64,000 bases of DNA. Source: Candidatus Multivorans sp. GTDB taxonomy: Bacteria > Acidobacteriota > Thermoanaerobaculia > Multivoradales > Multivoraceae. How positions within the stretch are numbered: position 1 is the stretch's first letter; every line of letters starts with the position of its first letter. The DNA lies in contig OZ245033.1 of assembly GCA_965224025.1 (NCBI GenBank), forward strand, positions 480,001 to 544,000, in the 5' to 3' direction. A program made the position numbers and the translations under genes. The notes under the pieces are model-generated. The model had not been told where the DNA came from, searched no databases, and saw only the letters and a program-made list of their open reading frames with translations. Positions 1,170 through 59,363 of the stretch are shown in pieces.

Positions 1170-2237
1170 ATGGAGTTCTGGACTAAAACCGTCGCCGCAC
1201 CGACCCGCGGCGCCGAGTTCGCCCTCGAGGCCGAGGACCGGGGCTGGGACGGCATCGACGTCGTCGACTCGCAGAACCTCTCCGGCGACCCCTACGTTTC
1301 TCTCGCCCTGGCGGCGACGACGACCAGGAAGCTGGGGGTCGCGACTTCGGTGACGAACCCGGTCACGCGGCACCCGGCGGTTACGGCATCCTCGGCCCTC
1401 TCCGTGCAACTGGTGTCACGGGGCCGGATGGTGCTCGGCATCGGCCGCGGCGACAGCGCGCTGGCGCACCTCGGCCGAGCGCCCGCGCGCCTGGGATGGT
1501 TCGAGAACCACCTCGTCAACCTGCAGGCGTACCTGCGCGGCGAGGAAGTGGCGTTCGAGGACACGAGCATTGCGGACGAAGCCGCGCCGCTTGCCGAGAA
1601 GCTCGGATTGGCGCACGGTCCCTCGGCCAGCTCGATCCGCTGGATCGGCGACTGGCCCAAGGTGCCAGTCGAGGTCGCGGCAACCGGTCCGAAGGTGATC
1701 GGGATCGCCGCCCGCCAGGCCGACCGGGTCATGCTCGCAGTCGGCGCCGATCCGAAACGCGTTGCGTGGGGCATCGAGACGGCGCGCAACGCCGCCGCGG
1801 AGGCTGGCCGCGATCCGGACTCGCTCCGGTTCGGCGCCTATGTGAACCTCGTCTGCTGCGACGACCCGGCAGTCGGCCGCGAACTCGGTCGGGCGACCAC
1901 CGGCCTGTTCGCCCGCTTCTCGGTCATGTACGGCGAGATCGCCGGGCCCGCCGACGAGCGTGAGGCGGACGTGTTCCACAAGCTCCACGACAGCTACGAC
2001 ATGAACGCCCACGGTCGGGCAGGCGGACAGCAGACGGCCGCGCTGACCGACGAGTTCATCGACGGTTACGCGATCATCGGCCAGCCCGATCACTGCGCGG
2101 CGCGGATCGAGGCGCTGCTCGAGCTCGGAGTCGACAAATTCGCGGTCACCGGACCCAACTTCGCGTCGCCGAGCCCGCCGGCCCGGGAGGCCGCGGAGCG
2201 GTTCACGGAGGACGTCCTGCCCCGGTTGCGGGGGTAG
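1170..2237 (+). CDS. LLM class flavin-dependent oxidoreductase (luciferase/Mer-like)
   Basis: AEDRGWDGI..DSQNL, VTNPVTRHP, GIGRGDS, AATGPK motifs; RBS GGAGGAG. Confidence 0.9.
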   Translation: MEFWTKTVAAPTRGAEFALEAEDRGWDGIDVVDSQNLSGDPYVSLALAATTTRKLGVATSVTNPVTRHPAVTASSALSVQLVSRGRMVLGIGRGDSALAHLGRAPARLGWFENHLVNLQAYLRGEEVAFEDTSIADEAAPLAEKLGLAHGPSASSIRWIGDWPKVPVEVAATGPKVIGIAARQADRVMLAVGADPKRVAWGIETARNAAAEAGRDPDSLRFGAYVNLVCCDDPAVGRELGRATTGLFARFSVMYGEIAGPADEREADVFHKLHDSYDMNAHGRAGGQQTAALTDEFIDGYAIIGQPDHCAARIEALLELGVDKFAVTGPNFASPSPPAREAAERFTEDVLPRLRG

Positions 2238-2262
2238 GCGCCGCCGCCGGCCAAACCGTCGG

Positions 2263-2300
2263 TTCGCGCCGGATGCGGGCAGGATGCCCGCGTTCCCAGG
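2263..2300 (+). repeat. REP-like palindromic repeat copy
   Basis: TTCGCGCCGGATGCGGGCAGGATGCCCGCGTTCCCAGG between convergent genes; related copies elsewhere in the window. Confidence 0.85.
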
Positions 2301-2321
2301 AACGGAGCACCGGCCGGCGGT

Positions 2322-3566
2322 TCACGCGTTCCGCTTGATGTCCCGGAACGGGCCCTTGTCGGCGCGGAATCCCTTCGGCATCCCGAGGACGCGCTCGGAG
2401 ATGATGTTGCGCTGAATCTCGTCCGTGCCGCCGGCGATCGAGATCGCGGGCACGGAGACCAGGATCTCGGCGACGATGCCGTCCGCCGCCGATTCGGGGC
2501 CGCTCAGCATGGCGTCAGCGCCCGAGATCATCGTGTGGACCAGCGACGCCTGGCGGGCGATGACGCTGGCCGCGAGCTTGCCGATCGACCCGGCGGGGAT
2601 GATGTCGGTCGTCCCGGCCTTGCGCTTCGCCTCGGCGCTGTCGGACGCGAGTCGCGCCCCGGTGGACAGGCAGATCAGCTTCGCGATCTCCTGCCGCACC
2701 GCCGGATCCTGGATCGCGCCGGTCTCTCGCGCGCGCGGCAGCACGAGATCGACCCGGCCCTCGCGTTGCGGATACCAGGTGTAGGGCTCGGTGGCGATCC
2801 GGATCTCCTCTTCGTACTCCGCGTAGATGGGCCCCTGCTTCGGGCCTTCGAGCGAGGACCCCCGGACCCGGCGGCTGAAGCCGCGGCGTTCGAAGGACAG
2901 CGTGGTCGAGGCGACGTGCCAGCCGGCGCCCTCGCCGCCGATCAGGTCCTCGGGACGCACGACGGCGTTCGACATGAACACCTCGTTGAACGACTGGTGC
3001 CCGTTCATCTGCTTGAGCGGCCGCGCCTCGACCCCCGGCTGCCGCATGTCGAGCAGGAAGTAGCTGATCCCCTGGTGCTTCGGGACATCCCAGTCGCTGC
3101 GCGCGACCAGGAGCCCGAAGTCCGCGTGGTGGGCGCTCGTGTTCCAGACTTTCTGGCCGTTGATGATCCACTTCCCTTCCACGAGTTCCGCCCGAGTGCT
3201 CAGGCCGGCCAGATCGGAGCCGCTGCCGGGCTCGCTGAAGAGCTGGCACCAAGTGTGTTCGCCGGTAAGTATGGGCCGGAGGAACCGCCGCTTCTGGTCG
3301 TCCGACCCGCAGGCCAGGATCGTCTCCGAGGCCAGCCCGCGAGGACCCACCTGGGCGGCCGGGACCACGTCCTTCTCTCTGAAGACTTCGGCGACCACCA
3401 CGGCCTGGTCCAGCGTGAAGCCGCGGCCGTACCACTCCTCGGGCCAGTGCGGCGCCGCCCAGCCAGCCTCGAGCAGGATGTTCCGCCACTCGATCAGGGG
3501 ACGATCGGTACGCCAGTTCGCGTCGAGCCAGGCGGAAACTTCGCGCCGGATCCGTTCCGGGGTCAT
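2322..3566 (-). CDS. Acyl-CoA dehydrogenase
   Basis: WCQLFSEPGSGSDLAGL, NGQKVWNTSAH, IAGGTDEIQRNII; ATGA overlap with the upstream gene. Confidence 0.92.
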   Translation of the reverse strand: MTPERIRREVSAWLDANWRTDRPLIEWRNILLEAGWAAPHWPEEWYGRGFTLDQAVVVAEVFREKDVVPAAQVGPRGLASETILACGSDDQKRRFLRPILTGEHTWCQLFSEPGSGSDLAGLSTRAELVEGKWIINGQKVWNTSAHHADFGLLVARSDWDVPKHQGISYFLLDMRQPGVEARPLKQMNGHQSFNEVFMSNAVVRPEDLIGGEGAGWHVASTTLSFERRGFSRRVRGSSLEGPKQGPIYAEYEEEIRIATEPYTWYPQREGRVDLVLPRARETGAIQDPAVRQEIAKLICLSTGARLASDSAEAKRKAGTTDIIPAGSIGKLAASVIARQASLVHTMISGADAMLSGPESAADGIVAEILVSVPAISIAGGTDEIQRNIISERVLGMPKGFRADKGPFRDIKRNA

Positions 3567-50801: not shown

Positions 50802-52595
50802 TCATTCTACCGGGGCATCGCCGCGGCGCCGCCGCTGGTACAGGAAGGAAACGGCCACCAGCAACGCGCCAACAATCAGGAAGGAGAGGATCCGGTAGCC
50901 CTGGTCCAGGAAGGACAGGTCGATGAGGAAGGTCTTGGCGACCACGACCAGCAGCAACGCCAGACCCTGCCATCGGAGGGCGGCGGCTTCGCGGCGGATG
51001 CCCGCGGCAACAAGCACCGCCGCCCACGCCAGCCACAGCGCCGATAGAGCGACCTGCGCGGCGAGATTCAGGTCCAGGTCGAGACTGAGTCCCTGCACGA
51101 AGTCCCACGTCTCGAGCGACACGGCGATGAGCGCGGCGACGTTGGCGATGCCGAGACCGATTGCCCAACCCACGCGCTCCAGGGGCAGCGGCTCTTCCAG
51201 GATGCGGCGCGCGGTGAACCCGGCTACGGCAAGCCCGATCGCCGCCCCGGCCAGGGTGAGGAACCGGAGGTTGACGAACAGGATCTGATCGGCCTGCCCG
51301 AGGAGCGCCTGCGGCGCCATCAACAGGACGACGCCGAACAGCCCCACCGAGAAGACGCGCATCCACAGCGATGGCAGGCGGGCCCCGGCGATCGCCAGCG
51401 CGACGGCTTCGGCCGTCCAGGCCACCGTGGTCCAGTCGCTTTCGAGCCGGATCGGGAAGGCGATCGTCGCCAGCAACGCCGCCTGGACCGCGAACAAGTC
51501 CTGCAACTGCCGTCCCTGGCGGTCTTGGCCGGCGCTCCGGCTCCCGAACACGCGGGACAACACGAAGTAGAGAGCGGCCAGCGCCAGAACGGCGCCGGTC
51601 AGCAGCCAGCGGTGTTCGTCGTACAGAAGTTGCTGCAGCAGCAGCACGTAGAAGCCGAGCGCCAATGCGAGCACGCCGATCTCGCTCGGGTGCAGGCGGC
51701 GCGCGAGACGCACGCGGGCCAGAGGCAGTGCGATGTAGACGATATAGAAGAGCGTCCCGAAGAGAGCGGTCGAGAGCAGCCGGTCGGGTTCGTAGAACTC
51801 CGCGTGCCAGGCGACGAAGTAGACGACCGTGGCGACCAGGGCCGCGGGCGCAAGAACGCGAAAGCCTCGCAGGAGTGCCAACGCGAGCAGGCTGGCGCTG
51901 AGCAGAGCGAGGTAGCTGAAGAGAACGACCTGCGCGTCGTCGCCGGTACTCAGAAGCGTCGGCGTCAGGTACCCGCCCGCGAGCGCAAGAGCCGCCAATT
52001 GCTGCGAGTCGCGGCGCACCGAAAGGCCAATGACCCCCGCGGTGACGAGAGCGAGGAAAACGAACGCGGCCAGCTGCGGCACGAGGGCGTAGAAGTCCCA
52101 GGCGGCATAGCCCGCGAGGTAGACGACGCCGGCGCCGAGAGCCGTCACCCCCTCGGCGAAGTACCGCATGCCGCGCGCGGCGAGCCACTCGCCGTAGACG
52201 CCGAGCGCCACGCCGCTGACGAGCCCGATCAGGACTCTTCCCGTCGGCCCGATCCACTCGTTCTCGAATGCGTAGCGGAGAAAGAAGGCCGCGGCGAACA
52301 GGAGCGTGAGGATGCCGAGGCGGTTCAGCCAGCGACCGCCGATCAGCGCCTCCAGATCGAGATCGCGCCAGGCAGCGGGCTTGGCTTTCGGAGCGTCCCC
52401 AACGCGAGGGCCGGCCTCGGCTGGCGTCACGGTGCGCGCGGCAGTCGCGTCGGGAGTGTCCACCGCCGCAGGCGCCGATTGCGACGGCGCCTTTTCGCCG
52501 GCGCTCCTCAGAGCCGCCACCTCGCGCTGCAGTTCCAGCACGCGGGCTTCAAGAGCCAGCACACGCTCGTCGAGTGGTTCTGGCGGCTCTGTCAC
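50802..52595 (-). CDS. DUF2339 family membrane protein
   Basis: LEALIGGRWLNRLG, WIGPTGR, KTFLIDLS.L...YRILSF. Confidence 0.9.
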   Translation of the reverse strand: MTEPPEPLDERVLALEARVLELQREVAALRSAGEKAPSQSAPAAVDTPDATAARTVTPAEAGPRVGDAPKAKPAAWRDLDLEALIGGRWLNRLGILTLLFAAAFFLRYAFENEWIGPTGRVLIGLVSGVALGVYGEWLAARGMRYFAEGVTALGAGVVYLAGYAAWDFYALVPQLAAFVFLALVTAGVIGLSVRRDSQQLAALALAGGYLTPTLLSTGDDAQVVLFSYLALLSASLLALALLRGFRVLAPAALVATVVYFVAWHAEFYEPDRLLSTALFGTLFYIVYIALPLARVRLARRLHPSEIGVLALALGFYVLLLQQLLYDEHRWLLTGAVLALAALYFVLSRVFGSRSAGQDRQGRQLQDLFAVQAALLATIAFPIRLESDWTTVAWTAEAVALAIAGARLPSLWMRVFSVGLFGVVLLMAPQALLGQADQILFVNLRFLTLAGAAIGLAVAGFTARRILEEPLPLERVGWAIGLGIANVAALIAVSLETWDFVQGLSLDLDLNLAAQVALSALWLAWAAVLVAAGIRREAAALRWQGLALLLVVVAKTFLIDLSFLDQGYRILSFLIVGALLVAVSFLYQRRRRGDAPVE

Positions 52596-52659
52596 TACTT
52601 GGTTACCTTCAAGGCAGCATCAGACGGTACCACTCCCCCTGACGGTGGCGGGCGCTAGA

Positions 52660-52710
52660 CCAGACCGGCGCTTCGCGCCGGATGCGGGCGAGACGCCCGC
52701 GTTCCCAGGG
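52660..52710 (+). repeat. REP-like palindromic repeat copy
   Basis: CCAGACCGGCGCTTCGCGCCGGATGCGGGCGAGACGCCCGCGTTCCCAGGG. Confidence 0.88.
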
Positions 52711-52813
52711 GCCGGATCCGTCTGAGCGCAACCCCTAGTTGGGCCAGTAGATGTGCTCATCGTCCGGAGCGCACCCGTCGCCGGCGCGAGCCGCCAGTGT
52801 TATCTTGCGCCGC

Positions 52814-53165
52814 ATGATCGACCTCTACTACTGGCCCACCTCGAACGGCTGGAAGGCCTCGATAGCGCTCGAGGAGATCGAACTGCCCTACAGCGTCGTG
52901 CCCGTCAACATCGGCCGCGGGGACCAGTTCAAGCCGGAGTTCCTGCGCATCAGCCCGAGCAACCGGATGCCGGCGAATCGTCGACCATGAACCGATGGGC
53001 GGCGGCGAGCCGCTGGCGATGTTCGAGTCCGGCGCCATCCTCCTCTACGTTGCGGAGAAGAGTGGCCGCTTCCTGCCCCAGGGCGTCCGCGAGCGCTGCG
53101 ACGTGACACAGTGGGTGATGTGGCAGATGGGCAATCTCGGCCCGACGCCGGGCCAGCACAATCAT
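52814..53165 (+). pseudogene. YfcG-like glutathione S-transferase, frameshifted (~52976) and 3'-truncated
   Basis: [51 protein letters not shown], after which homology ends. Confidence 0.88.
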
Positions 53166-53403
53166 GGTCTTCAGGCTGTTGTGTGGGCATGGAGCTGCAA
53201 GAGAGGCTGCCGATCGGCCTTGGACTGGCGAGATGAAGAGTGCCAAGACGTTCGAGAGGCTGTTGGGGGTCAAGCCGCCGTGGCGTGTGCGGGAGGTGGT
53301 GCTTGGCATGGACGAGCGGCATCCGCGTCGCCGGGGTCCGGTGGTTGGCGGCACGGTGGAGATCCACGTCGAGTTCGGAAAGACCTCGCCGACCGGCGAG
53401 TGA
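53166..53403 (+). mobile_element. 5' fragment of a probable ISL3-family element
   Basis: Begins GGTCTT at the GST breakpoint; ATG at 53233 gives [22 protein letters not shown]...VEIHVEF. Confidence 0.6.
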
Positions 53404-53434
53404 CGCCCGAGGCGCGACGATAGAATCCCCACCC

Positions 53435-54100
53435 ATGAGTCGGTTCTTCGACAAGACCCGCCTGCCGAAGGCGGGCGAGGCGCTTCCGGGGCGCGCCGAG
53501 ACGATTCCCGTCGCTCCACGCCACTACGTGCTCAAGGCGCCAATCGGGGAGCCGTACCCGGAAGGCAGCGAGCTGGCGATGTTCGGCCTCGGCTGTTTCT
53601 GGGGCGCCGAGCGCAAGTTCTGGGAAGCTCCCGGCGTGATCACGACCGCTGTCGGCTACGCCGCCGGGGCAACGCCGAACCCCACTTACCGCGAGGTCTG
53701 CAGCGGCATGACCGGTCACAACGAGGTCGTCCGCGTGGTGTTCGACCCCGAACGGATCTCGTACGAGGAGCTGCTTCGCATTTTCTGGGAGAGCCACGAC
53801 CCGACCCAGGGCATGCGTCAGGGGAACGACATCGGCACCCAGTACCGCTCCGGCGTCTATGTCTACTCCGAGGACCAGCGGCGGGCCGCCGAAGCGTCCC
53901 TCGGGGCGTACCAGCAGCGGCTTTCCGCCGCGCGCTTCGGCCGGATCACGACCGAGGTCTTGGATGCCCCCGAGTTCTACTTCGCCGAGGACTACCACCA
54001 GCAGTACCTGGCGAAGAACCCCGGCGGATACTGCGGCCTCGGCGGCACCGGTGTGACCTGTCAGACGGGACTCGAGCTGCCCGCGAGCCAGGCGGTCTGA
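53435..54100 (+). CDS. msrA: Peptide-methionine (S)-S-oxide reductase
   Basis: [43 protein letters not shown]. Confidence 0.97.
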
Positions 54101-54121
54101 GAGCGGCAACAAGGGAGAACG

Positions 54122-54358
54122 ATGGCGGACTCTACGGCCGCGCTAGCACGCGCTATCGGCTGGCTGCTCCTGATCGGCGGGGTGCTGGCGCTGGGCGGCT
54201 TCGCCATCTACGCGCTCATCGTCGACCGGGAAGCGCCCCTCTACATCAAACTCGGCGTCGGCGGCGTCTACGGCGGTCTGGCGCTGCTCCTGCTGTCGGT
54301 GCTGCGGCAGCGGCTGATCGCCCGCAAGACCGACAAGTACAAGGACGTGCAGATCTGA
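54122..54358 (+). CDS. Small two-TM membrane protein
   Basis: Two hydrophobic helices and a KTDKYKDVQI tail; RBS GGGAG. Confidence 0.8.
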   Translation: MADSTAALARAIGWLLLIGGVLALGGFAIYALIVDREAPLYIKLGVGGVYGGLALLLLSVLRQRLIARKTDKYKDVQI

Positions 54359-54375
54359 CCGCAGGGAGATCCCGG

Positions 54376-54690
54376 ATGCTGATTGCGACCACAGAGACGA
54401 TTGCCGGCCGGAACATCACCGAGACTCTGGGGCTCGTGCGCGGCAACACGATCCGCGCGCGACACGTGGGCAAGGACATCACCGCGGCCCTACGCAACCT
54501 GGTCGGCGGCGAGGTCACCGAGTACACCAAGATGGTGGCCGAGAGCCGCGAGCAGGCGCTCGACCGGATGGCCGCCCAGGCCGAGAGGCTCGGCGCCGAC
54601 GCCGTGGTCGCCGTGCGCTTCACGACCTCCGTGATCACGAGCGGCGCCGCCGAGCTGCTGGCGGTGGGGACGGCGGTGAAGCTGGACTAG
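54376..54690 (+). CDS. YbjQ/UPF0145 family protein
   Basis: LGLVRG, LVGGEVTEYT, REQALDRM...A..LGADAVV, GTAVKL. Confidence 0.93.
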   Translation: MLIATTETIAGRNITETLGLVRGNTIRARHVGKDITAALRNLVGGEVTEYTKMVAESREQALDRMAAQAERLGADAVVAVRFTTSVITSGAAELLAVGTAVKLD

Positions 54691-54692
54691 AT

Positions 54693-54738
54693 CCAGACCG
54701 GCGCTCCGCGCCGGATGCCGGCCGGAGGCCGGCGTACC
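54693..54738 (+). repeat. Left part of the REP-like copy interrupted by IS110 (right part CCCAGC at 56445-56450)
   Basis: CCAGACCGGCGCTCCGCGCCGGATGCCGGCCGGAGGCCGGCGTACC aligns with the 52660 copy. Confidence 0.85.
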
Positions 54739-54802
54739 TGTACCTTTCTCGGGTGGATTCTGGTGGGTCGTTGAGAGAGGTGGAATCGACCAGTAGCCGT
54801 CG

Positions 54803-54898
54803 CGGCTGCGGTAGCTGTGGGAAACCGGCTTGCCGGTTTTCCAAGGTCCGGCGGGAACGGTCTGCCGTTTTCCGCGGGACCGGCAGCTTCCGCAGCCG
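54803..54898 (+). ncRNA. Three-way-junction structured domain in the IS110 5' non-coding region
   Basis: Outer stem 54803-54817/54884-54898 (14 of 15 pairs) enclosing hairpins 54818-54843 and 54845-54881. Confidence 0.55.
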
Positions 54899-54947
54899 AG
54901 ACCGCCGGTCGGTTGCGTCTCCGGCCTGCCGGAGTCACTGAAGGAAA

Positions 54948-55102
54948 GTCGGCAAGCAGCCAGGAGCGACCACCGGCGTACTGTGCTTCGAGCACCTGGC
55001 TGGGACCCGTGCCCTGGCTGCTTCGCCGCGTTGGACGCCCAGTGGAGAGTCAGTGCCTTAGAGCACCAGTACAGGTACGGGCAGGCAACGCGGCATGCCG
55101 AC
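54948..55102 (+). ncRNA. IS110 bridge RNA core (target-binding and donor-binding loops)
   Basis: Guides CCGGCGTAC (54973-54981), GCTGGG (54999-55004), GTGGAGAGTC (55042-55051) and GTACAGG (55069-55075) match the target flanks and element ends; closing stems present. Confidence 0.9.
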
Positions 55103-55137
55103 CAGGCAACACTACCGCAAGGGAGAAGGAGGACGAG

Positions 55138-56390
55138 ATGACCAGGACGTGGTTCGTCGGCGTGGACTGGGGGTCCGAGACCCACCACGTGTGTGTGCTG
55201 GATCGGGACGGCAAGGTGAGGGGGGAGCGGGCGTTCGACCACAGCGGCAAGGGACTTGCCGCCATGGCCGACTGGCTCCTTGGACATACCCGACCGACGT
55301 CTCCGGACGAGATCGGCGTCGCCATCGAGGTGCCGCACGGACCGGTGGTCGAGACTCTCCTGGAGCGGGGCTTCGCCGTGCATTCGATCAACCCCAAGCA
55401 GCTCGACCGCTTCAGGGACCGCTTCTCCGTCGCCGGCGCCAAGGATGACCGCCGCGATGCACGGGTGCTCGCCGCCGCGCTTCGCACCGACCCCGAGTGC
55501 CTGAACCGCGTGCAACCATCCGATGCCGCCATCGTCATGCTGCGCGAGGTGTCCCGCGCCCGCAAGCAGTTGGTCAACCAGAAGAACCGCCTGGAGAACC
55601 AGGTCCGCGACCAGCTCTGGCGCTACTACCCGCAGTTTCTCGCCGTGGTCAAGAACGAGGTGTCGGCGCCCTTCGCGCTGGCCTTGTGGCGACTGGCGCC
55701 GACCCCCGGCAAGGCTCGACGGCTGCGCGAAGCCACGCTCGCCAAACTGCTCAAGGAACACCGCATCCGGCGCCTGACCTCCGCCCAACTGCGCGATCAA
55801 CTGCGGGCCGAGCCGATCGCCGTTTCCCCGGACACCGTTAAGGCCGCCGTCGAACACATAGGACTCCTCCGGCCGGTGCTCGACACCGTCTGCCGCCAAC
55901 TCGCCGACGCCGACAAGCGGCTGGAGCGGATGACCCGCGCACTCGAGGCCCCGGCCCAACGGGAAAACGACGACGACTCCCCTAAGCCGAGCGACGCCGC
56001 CATCCTCAGGTCGCTGCCCGGACTCGGCAAGGTCGGCCTCGCCACCCTGCTCTCCGAGGCCGATCAAAGCCTGGGCCGCAGAGACCACGAGGCACTGCGT
56101 TGCCTCTGCGGAGTGGCGCCGGTGACCGTCAAGTCCGGCAAGAAGCTCATCGTCATGCGACGACTCGCCGCCAACGAACACCTCAGCGACGCCGTCTATC
56201 ACTGGGGACGAGTCGCCATCCAGCACGACCCGATCAGCCGCGCCAAGTACGACGCCATGAAAGCCCAGGGAAAGACGCACGGACGCGCCATCAGACAACT
56301 CGTCGACCGACTCCTCGGCGTCGCCTGCGCCATGCTCCGAGGCCGACTCTCTTCGACCCCAACAAGCGATGCCATGCCCAGGTCGCATGA
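55138..56390 (+). CDS. IS110 DEDD recombinase/transposase (1-nt frameshift near 56345, in the last ~15 codons)
   Basis: VGVDWG, AIEVP, KDDRRDA, SLPGLG, GVAPVTVKSGK; RBS AGGAGG; the likely native tail TLFDPN..* is in the shifted frame. Confidence 0.93.
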
Positions 56391-56425
56391 CCTCCCTGAC
56401 CCGCAGCAGCCTCCCCAAAACACAC

Positions 56426-56431
56426 TTGCTA
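56426..56431 (+). promoter_or_regulatory. -35 half of the IS110 circle-junction promoter
   Basis: TTGCTA lies exactly 17 bp from TACCTT (54741-54746) once the ends are joined through CC. Confidence 0.75.
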
Positions 56432-56451
56432 AAGGGTGGAGAGTCCCAGCA

Positions 56452-57585
56452 TCACTCGCCGCTTCGCGGCTCGTTGCGCAGGCTCATCCGCTCCAGCACG
56501 CCCGCGACGAGCAGCGGCCACACCAGGGTGGCATCGGCGGGAACTTCGGCGAAGCGGCCGCCTTCGGAGGCGGGGACGAACTTGCCCCAGGACACCCCTT
56601 CGCTGTAGCCGCAGCCGGAGAGGCCGCCCCAATGCTCCGGTTCCGGGCAGATGCGGACGCCGTAGCGGAAGCGCTGGGGATCGGCTTCTTCGCCGTCCCG
56701 GCGCGCCGCCGCCTCGAGATAAGGCGCGACCTGCTGCGCCCAGTTCCGCGGCACGCCGCCGCCGATCGTGAAGATGCCGAGCCGTACAGCGCCGGAGACG
56801 AGGTCCGTGTAGTGCTCCAGGTCGAGGAAGGGATCGAAGCGAACCGGCGCCAGCCCGCGCTGGCGGCGCGCCCGATTGAACAGCGCGAAGTCGAGTCCGA
56901 TCTCCGAGTCCGTGAACGCGGGCACATAGACGGGGACGCCACGGCGCCAGGCGGAGGAAAGCACACCGCGCACCGGCCGGTTCTGGCCCGGCTCCGCCTC
57001 CGCCGGTGAACCCTCGCCTTCGCCCAGCCACCGCCCGAACGCCTCGTTCAGAGTCCGCGAACAGGCGACCTCGCCCTCCGGCCACTGCTCCAGGATGGCG
57101 TGGACGATGAGCTCAACCCGGTCCAGGTTGCTCTCCAGCTCCAGCGTGTCGTAGATGCGGTCGAAACCGGCGTAGTACGCGGAGCGGTCGTCCAGCGCGC
57201 CGTCGCCCGCCGGGACCTTGAAGTGGACCATGCCGGCGGACTCGACGAAGCCGTGGACCATCAGGGCCCCGGTGCAGACGATCGCGTCGAGCAGCCCGTG
57301 GTCGATCATGTCGCACAGGACGAGCCCCTGCTTGGCCGCGGTCAACGCGCCGGTGAACGTGCCGACCACCAGGCAGTCCGGATCCACAGCCATGTCATGG
57401 AGCACGTCCGCCGCCTCGCCAAGCTGACGGCCCCCGAAGGAGGTCGACTTCATCGCCGCGAGCAGATCCGAGAAGGACTCGACGGAGCCCAGATCGAGAG
57501 CCTCGAGCGGTTCCAGTCCTTGGCCGTCGCCGAACTCGGTCGGGCGACGCGCGCCGCCCGAGGACTTGGAAGGTCGATCGCTCAT
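56452..57585 (-). CDS. Deoxyhypusine synthase-like protein
   Basis: SFGGRQLGEA, CTGALMVH, DRIYD, VPAFTDSEIG, GGGVPRN, GGLSGC..SEGVSWGK, DAT. Confidence 0.9.
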   Translation of the reverse strand: MSDRPSKSSGGARRPTEFGDGQGLEPLEALDLGSVESFSDLLAAMKSTSFGGRQLGEAADVLHDMAVDPDCLVVGTFTGALTAAKQGLVLCDMIDHGLLDAIVCTGALMVHGFVESAGMVHFKVPAGDGALDDRSAYYAGFDRIYDTLELESNLDRVELIVHAILEQWPEGEVACSRTLNEAFGRWLGEGEGSPAEAEPGQNRPVRGVLSSAWRRGVPVYVPAFTDSEIGLDFALFNRARRQRGLAPVRFDPFLDLEHYTDLVSGAVRLGIFTIGGGVPRNWAQQVAPYLEAAARRDGEEADPQRFRYGVRICPEPEHWGGLSGCGYSEGVSWGKFVPASEGGRFAEVPADATLVWPLLVAGVLERMSLRNEPRSGE

Positions 57586-57824
57586 GAAGTCGCAGTCGAA
57601 GCTATCGCGGCAGGGAGTGGTGCACGACGCCGGTTTCGGCCCGTTTCTTGCTCAATGGAGCATCCATGTCCCGGTCAACTCAGGCTGTGACAGGATCCGC
57701 ACGCAAGGCAACGTACGTTTCGCTGCCGAAGGAGGGAGCTGCCGGCAGCGATTCCGAGGTTGGCCCCCTACCACTTCGGATCCGGATTCCGGCACGGGCG
57801 AGCCGAGTCCCGACTACGGCAGCG

Positions 57825-59363
57825 ATGAGCTGGACAGTTGTGAACTCGCGCGAACCCAGGGAGCTGGAACTCCTATACCGCCTGAGCCAGACGCTCGGTG
57901 AAAGCCTCGAGCTGCGCGACGTGACCCAGCCCGCGCTCTCCACGCTGGCGGAGCACCTGAACCTGAAGCACGGCACGATCACGCTGCTGAACCGGAAGAC
58001 CGGCGAGATCCACATCGAGGTCGCCCACGGATTGAGCGGCCAGCAGACCTCCCAGGTCCGCTATCGCCTGGGCGAGGGCGTCACCGGCAAAGTGATCGAG
58101 ACCGGCGAGCCCGAAGTGATCCTGAAGACGAGTGAGTCCGAGACCTTCCTCGACCGCACCCGCCGCGGCAAGAGCGCGGAGGTCTCCTTCCTCTGCGTGC
58201 CCATTCGCACGGGCAACGAGACCTACGGCGCGCTCAGCGTCGATCGGTCCTACGATCCGGACCACGATCTGAATGGCGACGTCCGCGTGCTCCTGATCGC
58301 CGGCGCCCTGATCGCGCAGGCGGTCAAGCTGCGCCGCACCGCGGAGGAGGAAAAGGAGCAACTCGAGGAGGAGAACGAGCGCCTGCGCGCCCAGCTCCGC
58401 GACCGCTTCCGGCCCGCCAACATCGTCGGCAACTCGCACGAAATGCAGGAGGTGTACGACCAGATCGCCACCGTCTCCGGCAGCAACACGAGCGTTCTGA
58501 TCACCGGCGAGACGGGAACCGGCAAGGAGCTCGTGGCGCAGGCGATCCACTACGACAGCGCCCGCGCCACCAAGCCGTTCGTCAAGGTCCACTGCGCGGC
58601 GCTGCCCGAGAGCGTGATCGAGAGCGAGTTGTTCGGCCACGAGCGCGGCGCCTTCACCGGCGCGATCCACCAACGCAAGGGCCGCTTCGAACTCGCCCAC
58701 ACCGGCACCATCTTCCTGGACGAAGTCGGCGACGTGCCTCTGCTGATCCAGATCAAGATGCTGCGGGTGCTGCAGGAGCGGGAGTTCGAACGAGTCGGCG
58801 GCAGCCGGACCCTGAAGGCGGACGTACGGATCATCGCCGCCACCAACAAGGACCTGTCCCACATGACCGCGCACGGCGCTTTCCGGGAGGATCTGTTCTA
58901 CCGCCTGAACGTGTTCCCCATCCACGTGCCGCCGCTGCGCAAGCGCAAGTCGGACATCGTCCAGTTGGCCGACTTCTTCCTGGAGCGTTACGCGCGCGCC
59001 AACGGCGCCAACGTGCGCCGGCTCTCAAGCGCCGTGATCGACATGTTGATGAGCTATCACTGGCCCGGCAACGTGCGGGAGCTCGAGAGCTGCATTGAAC
59101 GCGCGGTCCTGGTGGCAAGGAACGACGTGATCCACCCCCACCACCTGCCGCCGACCCTTCAGACCGCGGAGAGTTCCGGCACCGAGCCGCCGGGCAGCTT
59201 CCGCTACCTGATCGAGAACTACGAGCGCGACCTGCTGCGCGACGCCCTGAAGAGTGCCCGCGGAAACGTCGCCGAGGCGTCGCGCAAACTGCGCACCACG
59301 CCGCGGATCACCGGCTACAAGATCAAGAAGTACGGCATCGACGCGAACCGCTACGCCGGCTAG
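57825..59363 (+). CDS. Sigma54-dependent activator, GAF-AAA-Fis HTH (NifA-like architecture)
   Basis: GEGVTG, GETGTGKE, ESELFGHERGAFTGA, FLDEVG, WPGNVREL; start uncertain. Confidence 0.93.
   Translation: MSWTVVNSREPRELELLYRLSQTLGESLELRDVTQPALSTLAEHLNLKHGTITLLNRKTGEIHIEVAHGLSGQQTSQVRYRLGEGVTGKVIETGEPEVILKTSESETFLDRTRRGKSAEVSFLCVPIRTGNETYGALSVDRSYDPDHDLNGDVRVLLIAGALIAQAVKLRRTAEEEKEQLEEENERLRAQLRDRFRPANIVGNSHEMQEVYDQIATVSGSNTSVLITGETGTGKELVAQAIHYDSARATKPFVKVHCAALPESVIESELFGHERGAFTGAIHQRKGRFELAHTGTIFLDEVGDVPLLIQIKMLRVLQEREFERVGGSRTLKADVRIIAATNKDLSHMTAHGAFREDLFYRLNVFPIHVPPLRKRKSDIVQLADFFLERYARANGANVRRLSSAVIDMLMSYHWPGNVRELESCIERAVLVARNDVIHPHHLPPTLQTAESSGTEPPGSFRYLIENYERDLLRDALKSARGNVAEASRKLRTTPRITGYKIKKYGIDANRYAG

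Follow-up and report, generated by a model that had tools for sequence, protein, structure and literature searches.

A predicted bridge RNA and the REP-like target sites of an IS110-family element in Candidatus Multivorans

In the genome of Candidatus Multivorans sp. (Acidobacteriota; Thermoanaerobaculia), an insertion sequence (IS) of the IS110 family interrupts a repeat unit of the repetitive extragenic palindromic (REP) kind, and the question raised by this locus is what brought the element to that site: an RNA guide of its own, direct recognition of the repeat by its recombinase, or the survival of only those insertions that do no harm. The window, that is, the whole stretch of DNA that was analysed, comprises 64,000 nucleotides (nt) (contig OZ245033.1, positions 480,001 to 544,000 of the forward strand; assembly GCA_965224025.1) and belongs to a genome (G000) of 5.14 Mb in 3 contigs, with a G+C content of 67.6% in the main contig. 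Bridge-RNA guidance of integration has been known since 2024, and the element in the window is very probably one of 14 copies of a bridge-RNA-guided insertion sequence of the IS110 group that integrates at one nucleotide within a group of REP subtypes. The interrupted repeat, its insertion and a neighbouring uninterrupted unit are located as follows.

54739-56446, + strand: IS110-family insertion sequence, 1708 bp, with ends placed by junction alignment and by an empty orthologous site
54693-54738, + strand: left part of the interrupted REP doublet, with the first hairpin followed by the second (arms 54717-54723 and 54727-54733)
54729-54738, + strand: left target (LT) and core, CCGGCGTA-CC, from the junction alignment
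56447-56450, + strand: right target (RT) CAGC, the tail of the REP unit, placed by the identical empty orthologous site
52660-52709, + strand: uninterrupted REP doublet of a non-permissive subtype, with the tail CCCGCGTTCCCAGG

Removal of the element joins 54693-54738 to 56447-56450 and restores a 50-nt doublet, which is the string quoted in a preliminary description of this DNA, and the restored string aligns without a gap to the empty unit at 52660-52709, the two agreeing at 42 of their 50 positions (counted by hand). That description had placed the empty repeat three mismatches away from the target defined by the guide, and the count is correct for the target-equivalent 14-mer of the 52660-52709 unit. 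The unoccupied state is also preserved in a genome of the same genus (G016), where at the orthologous locus L082 both flanks, which are ~89-91% identical to those in the window, abut directly and form a junction that is exactly the reconstituted site; no element match of at least 100 nt was found in any of the nine orthologous loci examined (L082-L090). The element so delimited opens with TGTACCTTTC (first letters TGTACC...) and closes with GGTGGAGAGTCC (last letters ...GAGTCC), and by eye there are no terminal inverted repeats between the two.

The same junctions recur across the genome, which holds 14 near-full copies of 96.9-100% identity in addition to fragments. The exact end motifs, 19 left and 17 right, sort into the 14 paired copies, three solo left ends whose similarity to the element extends beyond the motif, one 5'-truncated copy and four isolated matches (two per end) without such similarity. 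CCGGCG[C/T]ACC precedes every one of the 17 genuine left junctions, and the sequence after the 15 genuine right junctions is CAGT (nine), CAGC (four) or CGGT (two); the 14 near-full copies and the three solo left ends are inserted at one nucleotide of the sequence CCGGCG[C/T]ACC^C[A/G]G[C/T]. Insertions into unrelated sites, named in the preliminary description as the outcome that would speak against it, are absent, the same 10-nt flank being found at every one of the 17 left junctions. Comparison of occupied with empty sites indicates a CC core, such that the target reads LT-CC-RT, the joined ends read ...GAGT-CC-TGTACC... and the core is present once when the site is empty; CC stands at both junctions of the inserted element, with no duplication of the target beyond it.

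A candidate for the determinant of this precision lies in the left non-coding end of the element, where the following features are predicted.

54739-55137, + strand: left non-coding end (LE), 399 nt
54947-55108, + strand: predicted bridge RNA made of a target-binding and, after it, a donor-binding stem-loop module, both with a large internal loop
54973-54981, + strand: left target guide (LTG) CCGGCGUAC, the same as the top-strand sequence of the left target with the first core C added
54999-55004, + strand: right target guide (RTG) GCUGGG, the reverse complement of core and RT (CC-CAGC)
55042-55051, + strand: left donor guide (LDG) GUGGAGAGUC, the same as the final 10 nt of the right end through the first core C
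55069-55075, + strand: right donor guide (RDG) GUACAGG, which reads as the reverse complement of the core joined to the opening 5 nt of the left end

All four guides match exactly in the window copy (LTG as a 9-mer, RTG as a 6-mer, LDG as a 10-mer and RDG as a 7-mer), the target loop (LTG and RTG) spelling the window's own site, CCGGCGTA-CC-CAGC, and the donor loop spelling the joined ends. In IS621, the LTG is described as having top-strand sense over left target and core, the RTG as complementary to that strand over core and RT, and the donor-loop guides as obeying the same strand logic (PMC11208160). Potential pairing of the two loops with the REP target and with the joined ends is thus evident at the sequence level. 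Such an arrangement is not readily produced by chance: when the 399-nt left end was simulated 20,000 times with a first-order Markov model, the LT 9-mer followed within 8-45 nt by the reverse complement of core and RT was never obtained, and neither was the donor-pair arrangement (0/20,000 in each case), with the LT 9-mer alone arising in 58. The LDG is unchanged across all 14 copies, and the LTG varies at position 54979, where five copies have U and nine have C.

The fold of this region is also consistent with a functional RNA. The segment 54945-55110 is predicted to form two internal-loop modules with an energy of -80.2 kcal/mol (z = -3.29), a stability reached by none of 200 shuffled sequences, and a consensus fold of relatives, built from 22 representatives out of 27 distinct sequences, contains 36 pairs, 11 of them with compensatory changes, the columns of the target loop being variable and the donor loop conserved.

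RNA guidance, proposed in the preliminary description, is supported by this conserved RNA with its two internal loops, by the exact complementarity of the loops to target and joined ends, and by covariation between guides and flanks over seven independent target types. A scan of one genome per species yielded 178 stretches encoding relatives, of which the best 80 (56-93% identity) were kept, mostly from Candidatus Multivorans, Thermoanaerobaculia and Vicinamibacterales. The target-loop pattern is present in 77 of these 80 loci, and in 64 the target loop and both ends were located, which together with the 14 resident copies gave 21 guide classes. Where the LTG of a relative reads GGGGUCCC, GCGAUCCC, GUGGACGC, GUGAUAGCCC, UUCGUCCC or AAGCGGAUCC, the left flank is each time identical to the LTG of that relative, and the RTG is the reverse complement of the sequence after the relative's right end. 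In a set picked by hand to hold one member per target type, from which redundant classes and the loci L058 and L059 (right flank like another left end) were excluded, the cognate guide/flank pairs of the seven target types score 14-16 of 17, whereas the 42 non-cognate pairs average 8.8 and reach 12 at most. Within the REP-targeting clade, the tail changes together with the RTG (GCUGGG with CCCAGC, ACUGGG with CCCAGT and ACCGGG with CCCGGT). In L058 and L059, both from distant relatives, the right end runs straight into a left-end-like CTGTAC...; these junctions could represent tandem copies or a target that mimics the donor.

The protein encoded by the element agrees with its assignment to the IS110 group.

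55138-56390, + strand: transposase/recombinase gene with a DEDD RuvC-like domain and a Tnp domain, from Pfam and NCBIfam matches

Its product matches PF01548 (DEDD_Tnp_IS110, E = 9.5e-35), PF02371 (Transposase_20, E = 1.3e-12) and the NCBIfam model NF033542, 'IS110 family RNA-guided transposase' (174.1 bits; cut-off 140), and it aligns distantly to the IS621 recombinase chain 8wt6_A (E = 3.1e-10, phmmer). Identical columns of that alignment fall within the motifs GVD/GID, IEV/IEA, DRRDAR/DTVDAR and KSG/ESG (D, E, D..D and Ser-Gly), and D, E, D..D and S-G residues are those named as catalytic for the IS621 recombinase (PMC11208158), their placement on the numbering of 8wt6_A depending on a presumed offset.

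If the guides direct integration, occupancy of the repeats should follow the subtype of their tails, and the genome allows this to be counted. The family pattern CC[CG]GCGNNCCCAGN has 271 genomic matches, and the subtypes are occupied as listed.

CCGGCGTACCCAGC (T..C, perfect for the window's guide): 4 occupied, 1 empty
CCGGCGCACCCAGT (C..T, abundant): 9 occupied, 38 empty
CCGGCGCACCCGGT (CGGT): 1 occupied, 5 empty
CCGGCGCACCCAGC: 0 occupied, 2 empty
CCGGCGTACCCAGT: 0 occupied, 2 empty
CCGGCGCACCCGGC: 0 occupied, 3 empty
CCCGCG subtypes together: 0 occupied, 172 empty

The specificity for REP subtype that had been proposed is supported by these counts, in which the permissive group, CCGGCG[CT]ACCC[AG]G[CT], holds 14 occupied and 51 empty sites as against 0 and 172 in the CCCGCG subtypes (Fisher p = 4e-9). 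Included in the CCCGCG set are 118 copies of CCCGCGTTCCCAGG as well as 23 sites separated from used ones by a change of G to C at position 3 alone, and the difference from the permissive group persists for these 23 sites, none of which is occupied (Fisher p = 0.017). Within the permissive group, the subtype that matches the window's guide perfectly is occupied at 4 of 5 sites and the abundant subtype at 9 of 47 (Fisher p = 0.011). The comparison of occupancy by mismatch number, suggested as a check in the preliminary description, gives a graded answer: the perfect subtype is indeed the fullest, but insertion is not confined to it, since the abundant subtype, two transitions away, carries 9 of the 14 copies. 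Two statements made there need to be narrowed in the same way. The reading CCCGCGTTCCCAGG for empty copies applies to the neighbouring unit and to 118 copies in the genome, but not to the 51 empty sites of the permissive group, one of which is a perfect match; and that the occupied copy matches perfectly is true of the window copy, but 10 of the 14 occupied sites are imperfect with respect to the guide of that copy.

The imperfections are of a restricted kind. Sites in use vary by C for T in the left half, T for C at the last position and G for A in the right half, all of which are transitions and, given the strand assignments, would retain an rU·dG or rG·dT wobble with a U-bearing guide, and the G-to-C transversion at target position 3, characteristic of the CCCGCG subtypes, is associated with zero use. 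In ISPpu10, mutagenesis has shown G·U and G·T wobble to be tolerated at particular guide positions (preprint 10.64898/2026.03.19.712850); here, tolerance is suggested by natural site variants alone.

By analogy with IS621, the element would be excised as a circle, in which the joining of right end to left end would create a sigma-70-like promoter, with its -35 hexamer contributed by the right end and its -10 hexamer by the left, to drive both the ~160-nt bridge RNA and the recombinase.

56426-56431, + strand: -35-like hexamer TTGCTA in the right end, with TTG at the same position in 26/26 distinct junctions
54741-54746, + strand: -10-like hexamer TACCTT (TAnnnT) at the start of the left end, with TACnnT in 26/26 distinct left ends

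The combination of TTGnnn, a 17-nt spacer and TACnnT is found in all 26 distinct joined ends, and this spacing arises only when the circle is joined; a split junction promoter of this type is described for IS621 (PMC11208158). The donor loop (GUGGAGAGUC / GUACAGG) would then pair with the joined ends around the CC core, and the target loop with both strands of the REP tail, the bottom one over CCGGCG[U]A-CC and the top one over CC-CAGC, such that integration would proceed in a single orientation between the CC core and the following CAG, without duplication beyond the core, and the host's REP family would be used by the element as a multicopy site.

Several observations weigh against this account. 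An Rfam scan of 52000-58000 at E <= 1 returned no bridge-RNA family, only a sub-threshold match to sroD, and the last core position is not Watson-Crick in either the LTG (U, a possible wobble) or the LDG (A); a strong preference for core pairing is reported for IS621 (PMC11208160). The site at C1:2400423 is a perfect match and is empty. The guide base carried by a copy is not linked to the base of the site it occupies (T sites are occupied by 2 of 5 copies with U and 2 of 9 with C, p = 0.58), and two copies with the C guide lie in T sites, implying an rC·dA mismatch; when the genomes of two relatives are pooled with this one, an association between guide and site appears (p = 0.027), from copies that are not independent. 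Both the lack of association and the rC·dA cases would be explained by an RNA acting in trans on the circle of another copy, or by later mutation, and action of the RNA in trans has been demonstrated for IS621 (PMC11208160). The window copy also carries a C-terminal frameshift in its recombinase gene and may thus depend on other copies. Finally, no circle junction, other excision product or transcript was seen in the public sequencing runs; the short contigs from three of them break at the repeat, and none spans the element or is joined across its ends. A back-joint from 56473 to 54711 lies outside the ends of the element in REP-like sequence and was set aside as a repeat artefact.

The regularity of the insertions could have other origins. 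In one, the recombinase itself reads the REP hairpin or sequence, and the guide-like matches in the LE are leftovers of a REP carried along by the element. A perfect 7-bp hairpin does overlap the left target at 10 of the 14 occupied sites, and integration of ISPpu10 is boosted by a stem-loop in its target (preprint 10.64898/2026.03.19.712850). However, this hairpin is also found at 30 of the 51 empty permissive sites and is missing from four occupied ones, and no dependence of occupancy on it is detected (10/40 with the hairpin versus 4/25 without, p = 0.54). Direct reading is rendered very improbable by the RTG, which is the reverse complement of the target rather than a copy of it and is placed in a conserved internal loop, and by the covariation of both guide arms with the flanks across seven unrelated target types, over which the protein stays 56-93% identical.

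It is also conceivable that insertion is broad and that only copies in harmless REP tails have survived, in which case the harbour is made by selection and not by targeting. The locations are compatible with this, the REP unit interrupted in the window lying between gene ends (both window units examined adjoin or separate gene ends), and a coding-like frame runs across the site at just 1 of the 14 insertion points by a crude and weak heuristic of frame and GC3. Selection nevertheless fails to account for the use of the same nucleotide in the same orientation at 17/17 junctions, for the avoidance of 172 presumably equally intergenic units of the CCCGCG type or for the guide match itself, and it has next to no likelihood. 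The same low standing is given to a composite origin, in which REP and element move as one unit or blocks of IS and REP are spread by duplication or homologous recombination. This would suit the four T..C-type copies, which share an identical 25-nt left flank (hairpin and tail), but sequence outside the REP is different at every copy, the loops and stems of the hairpins are as variable at occupied as at empty sites, the orthologous site in G016 is an intact REP without the element, and the REP subtype occurs in 40 of 42 genomes of the genus, many of them free of the element; such an origin is exceedingly improbable.

The repeats themselves are units of a 7-bp GC-rich hairpin and a conserved tail, of which several subtypes exist, and doublets are common. 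No match to Y1_Tnp (PF01797) was found in the window's own genome, nor any Y1-domain match among the matches listed, and PF01797 is matched in 25 of the 42 genus genomes. In two of these a Y1-domain gene lies between inverted REP units, at L092 (G008, 1-1300), where the units belong precisely to the element's target subtype, and at L091 (G016, 1200-3100), where they are of the CCCGCGCACCCAGA subtype. The proteins of both loci match PF01797, and against the NCBIfam model for the REP-associated tyrosine transposase (RAYT), NF047646 (cut-off 80), the L092 protein scores 80.9 bits and the L091 protein 76, just below. The CCCGCGCACCCAGA subtype at L091 is also found in an array with a period of ~265 nt downstream of the RAYT-like gene. 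Flanked as they are by inverted units, the Y1 genes of these congeners indicate a bona fide REP/RAYT family of the genus, from which the RAYT appears to have been lost in the window's genome; since no RAYT was found there, the REPs are probably no longer propagated in it.

The target 15-mer is present in 40 of the 42 genus genomes at 1 to 330 copies each (0 or 1 per strand for a reversed control pattern), and relatives of the recombinase (E <= 1e-20) occur in 13, which shows the repeat to be wider in distribution than the element and presumably older. Several genus genomes with more than 200 target 15-mers carry no relative of the element. The guide base at the polymorphic LTG position is C in all the more distant relatives and U in 5 of the 14 resident copies as well as in the copies of one close relative. 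A guide of the U form would pair by Watson-Crick geometry with the rare, nearly saturated T..C subtype and by rU·dG and rG·dT wobble with the abundant C..T subtype. It can be suggested, with considerable doubt, that one transition in the LTG widened the reach of the element and that, together with RNA acting in trans, this amounts to an ongoing co-evolution of guide and target on a REP population that is RAYT-less and non-renewable.

Further traces of the element and its kin are scattered over the genome. At C1:550060, a 14-nt remnant of the left end stands behind a T-type target half-site and is followed by unrelated sequence, which may be a deletion scar. A solo fragment of 201 nt (C1:4322373-4322573), 97.5% identical to the bridge-RNA region and without a transposase, has an RTG context like that of a congener variant (CTAGCTGGG) and unlike that of the 14 resident copies. 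Four orphan modules (C1:3672584-3672706, 4048787-4048918, 2474161-2474283 and 1301954-1302035) are 84-87% identical to LE positions 53-186, the hairpins upstream of the bridge RNA, and each is preceded by a common stretch of ~60 nt containing TGTAC. A second element of the IS110 family, outside the window, was found with PF01548, a lineage missed by tblastn with the window transposase; it is present at C1 ~111512-113177 and 13 further places as 14 near-identical copies of ~1.67 kb, with one diverged copy in addition, and has the ends CTAGGAGTG...CCATGCAAG. Its right flanks share nCTGCGC(G/C)GCAG and its left flanks are variable, the right flank abutting an inverted REP tail in 2-3 copies, and its target differs from that of the window element.

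The copies of the window element vary in integrity. The full 417-aa frame is retained in 10 of the 14, each 1710 bp long; in three, the window copy among them, the protein alignment ends at residue 409, and one is disrupted close to the N-terminus. In two of the three, including the window copy, the residue-409 endpoint was traced to a single-nucleotide deletion near 56346, which in the window copy shifts the frame after ~residue 402, leaves the ancestral stop codon at 56388-56390 out of frame and extends the open frame to 57009; the deletion and the frame open through the right end are alike in the window copy and the copy at C1:3855042. A second 1-nt deletion of the window copy relative to the other copies lies in the left end, at 54855. 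Extra hairpins within the first ~200 nt of the LE are deleted in two copies. The recombinase of the window copy may consequently be impaired; its bridge-RNA region is intact. The insertion site occupies a 53-nt spacer flanked by two convergent genes.

54376-54690, + strand: upstream gene of the YbjQ_1 family, ending in a stop codon (54688-54690) that precedes the REP by 2 nt
56452-57585, - strand: downstream gene, deoxyhypusine synthase family, convergent, with its stop codon at 56452-56454, 5 nt past the right end of the element

The repeats may serve the element as a multicopy 'safe harbour', as proposed in the preliminary description; the one copy checked directly, that in the window, is intergenic.

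Every testable defining feature of the IS110 group is present in the element, and the preliminary description had drawn a parallel to IS621. The likeness extends to a two-domain DEDD and Ser recombinase, a left-end bridge RNA whose target loop precedes the donor loop, an LTG of top-strand sense with an RTG complementary to the top strand, a dinucleotide core and natural targets in REP elements. It extends also to the choice of sites, as IS621 mostly uses ATCAGGCCTAC although its loop encodes ATCGGGCCTAC, one transition apart (PMC11208160), and here, too, the most-used natural site is off the one encoded by the loop by transition. The element is nevertheless not IS621, given that core, target and protein all differ: the core is CT in IS621 and CC here, the IS621 target ATCAGGCCTAC lies in enterobacterial REPs of unrelated sequence and family, the proteins are only distantly related (E = 3.1e-10) and the present host is an acidobacterium. 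Also unlike IS621 are the LE of 399 nt, with ~200 nt of extra hairpins before the RNA, and the last core base, which is not Watson-Crick in LTG and LDG. The parallel thus holds for the targeting of REPs and for an unrelated repeat family, but is not special to IS621, several IS110 members doing the same; knowledge of such targeting within the family goes back to 2003-2006 (PMC1525189; PMC11208160).

Multiple copies within one REP subtype are described for ISPpu10 and ISPpu9 of Pseudomonas putida and for other IS110 members (PMC1525189; PMC12288879; preprint 10.64898/2026.03.19.712850). These share with the present element the confinement to one REP subtype and a GC-rich stem-loop overlapping the left target, and differ from it in phylum, repeat sequence and core; no dependence on the stem-loop was detected here, at the 10/40 and 4/25 given above, and in contrast to their setting, the window's genome is without the RAYT that normally accompanies REPs. 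The repeat family resembles known REP/RAYT systems in its short GC-rich palindrome, conserved tail, 271 matches and doublets, and in the single-copy-like Y1 gene between inverted units of congeners, and departs from them in that no RAYT was found in the window's genome and several tail subtypes coexist. No paper joining Acidobacteriota, IS110 and bridge RNA was found in the library searched, and the natural-target tables of PMC11208160 may list the lineage.

The understanding of the mechanism is unchanged by these findings, which represent a clean but ordinary case of published REP targeting and bridge-RNA guidance. What the locus offers is the full anatomy of a bridge-RNA element in Acidobacteriota, legible from sequence alone, and possibly some help in picking CC-core orthologues for engineering. 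The main value added is a natural titration of mismatches within one genome, in which perfect sites are almost all occupied, those compatible with wobble are filled in part and those with a single transversion are untouched, a pattern that agrees with the mutagenesis of ISPpu10 and with the site preference of IS621.

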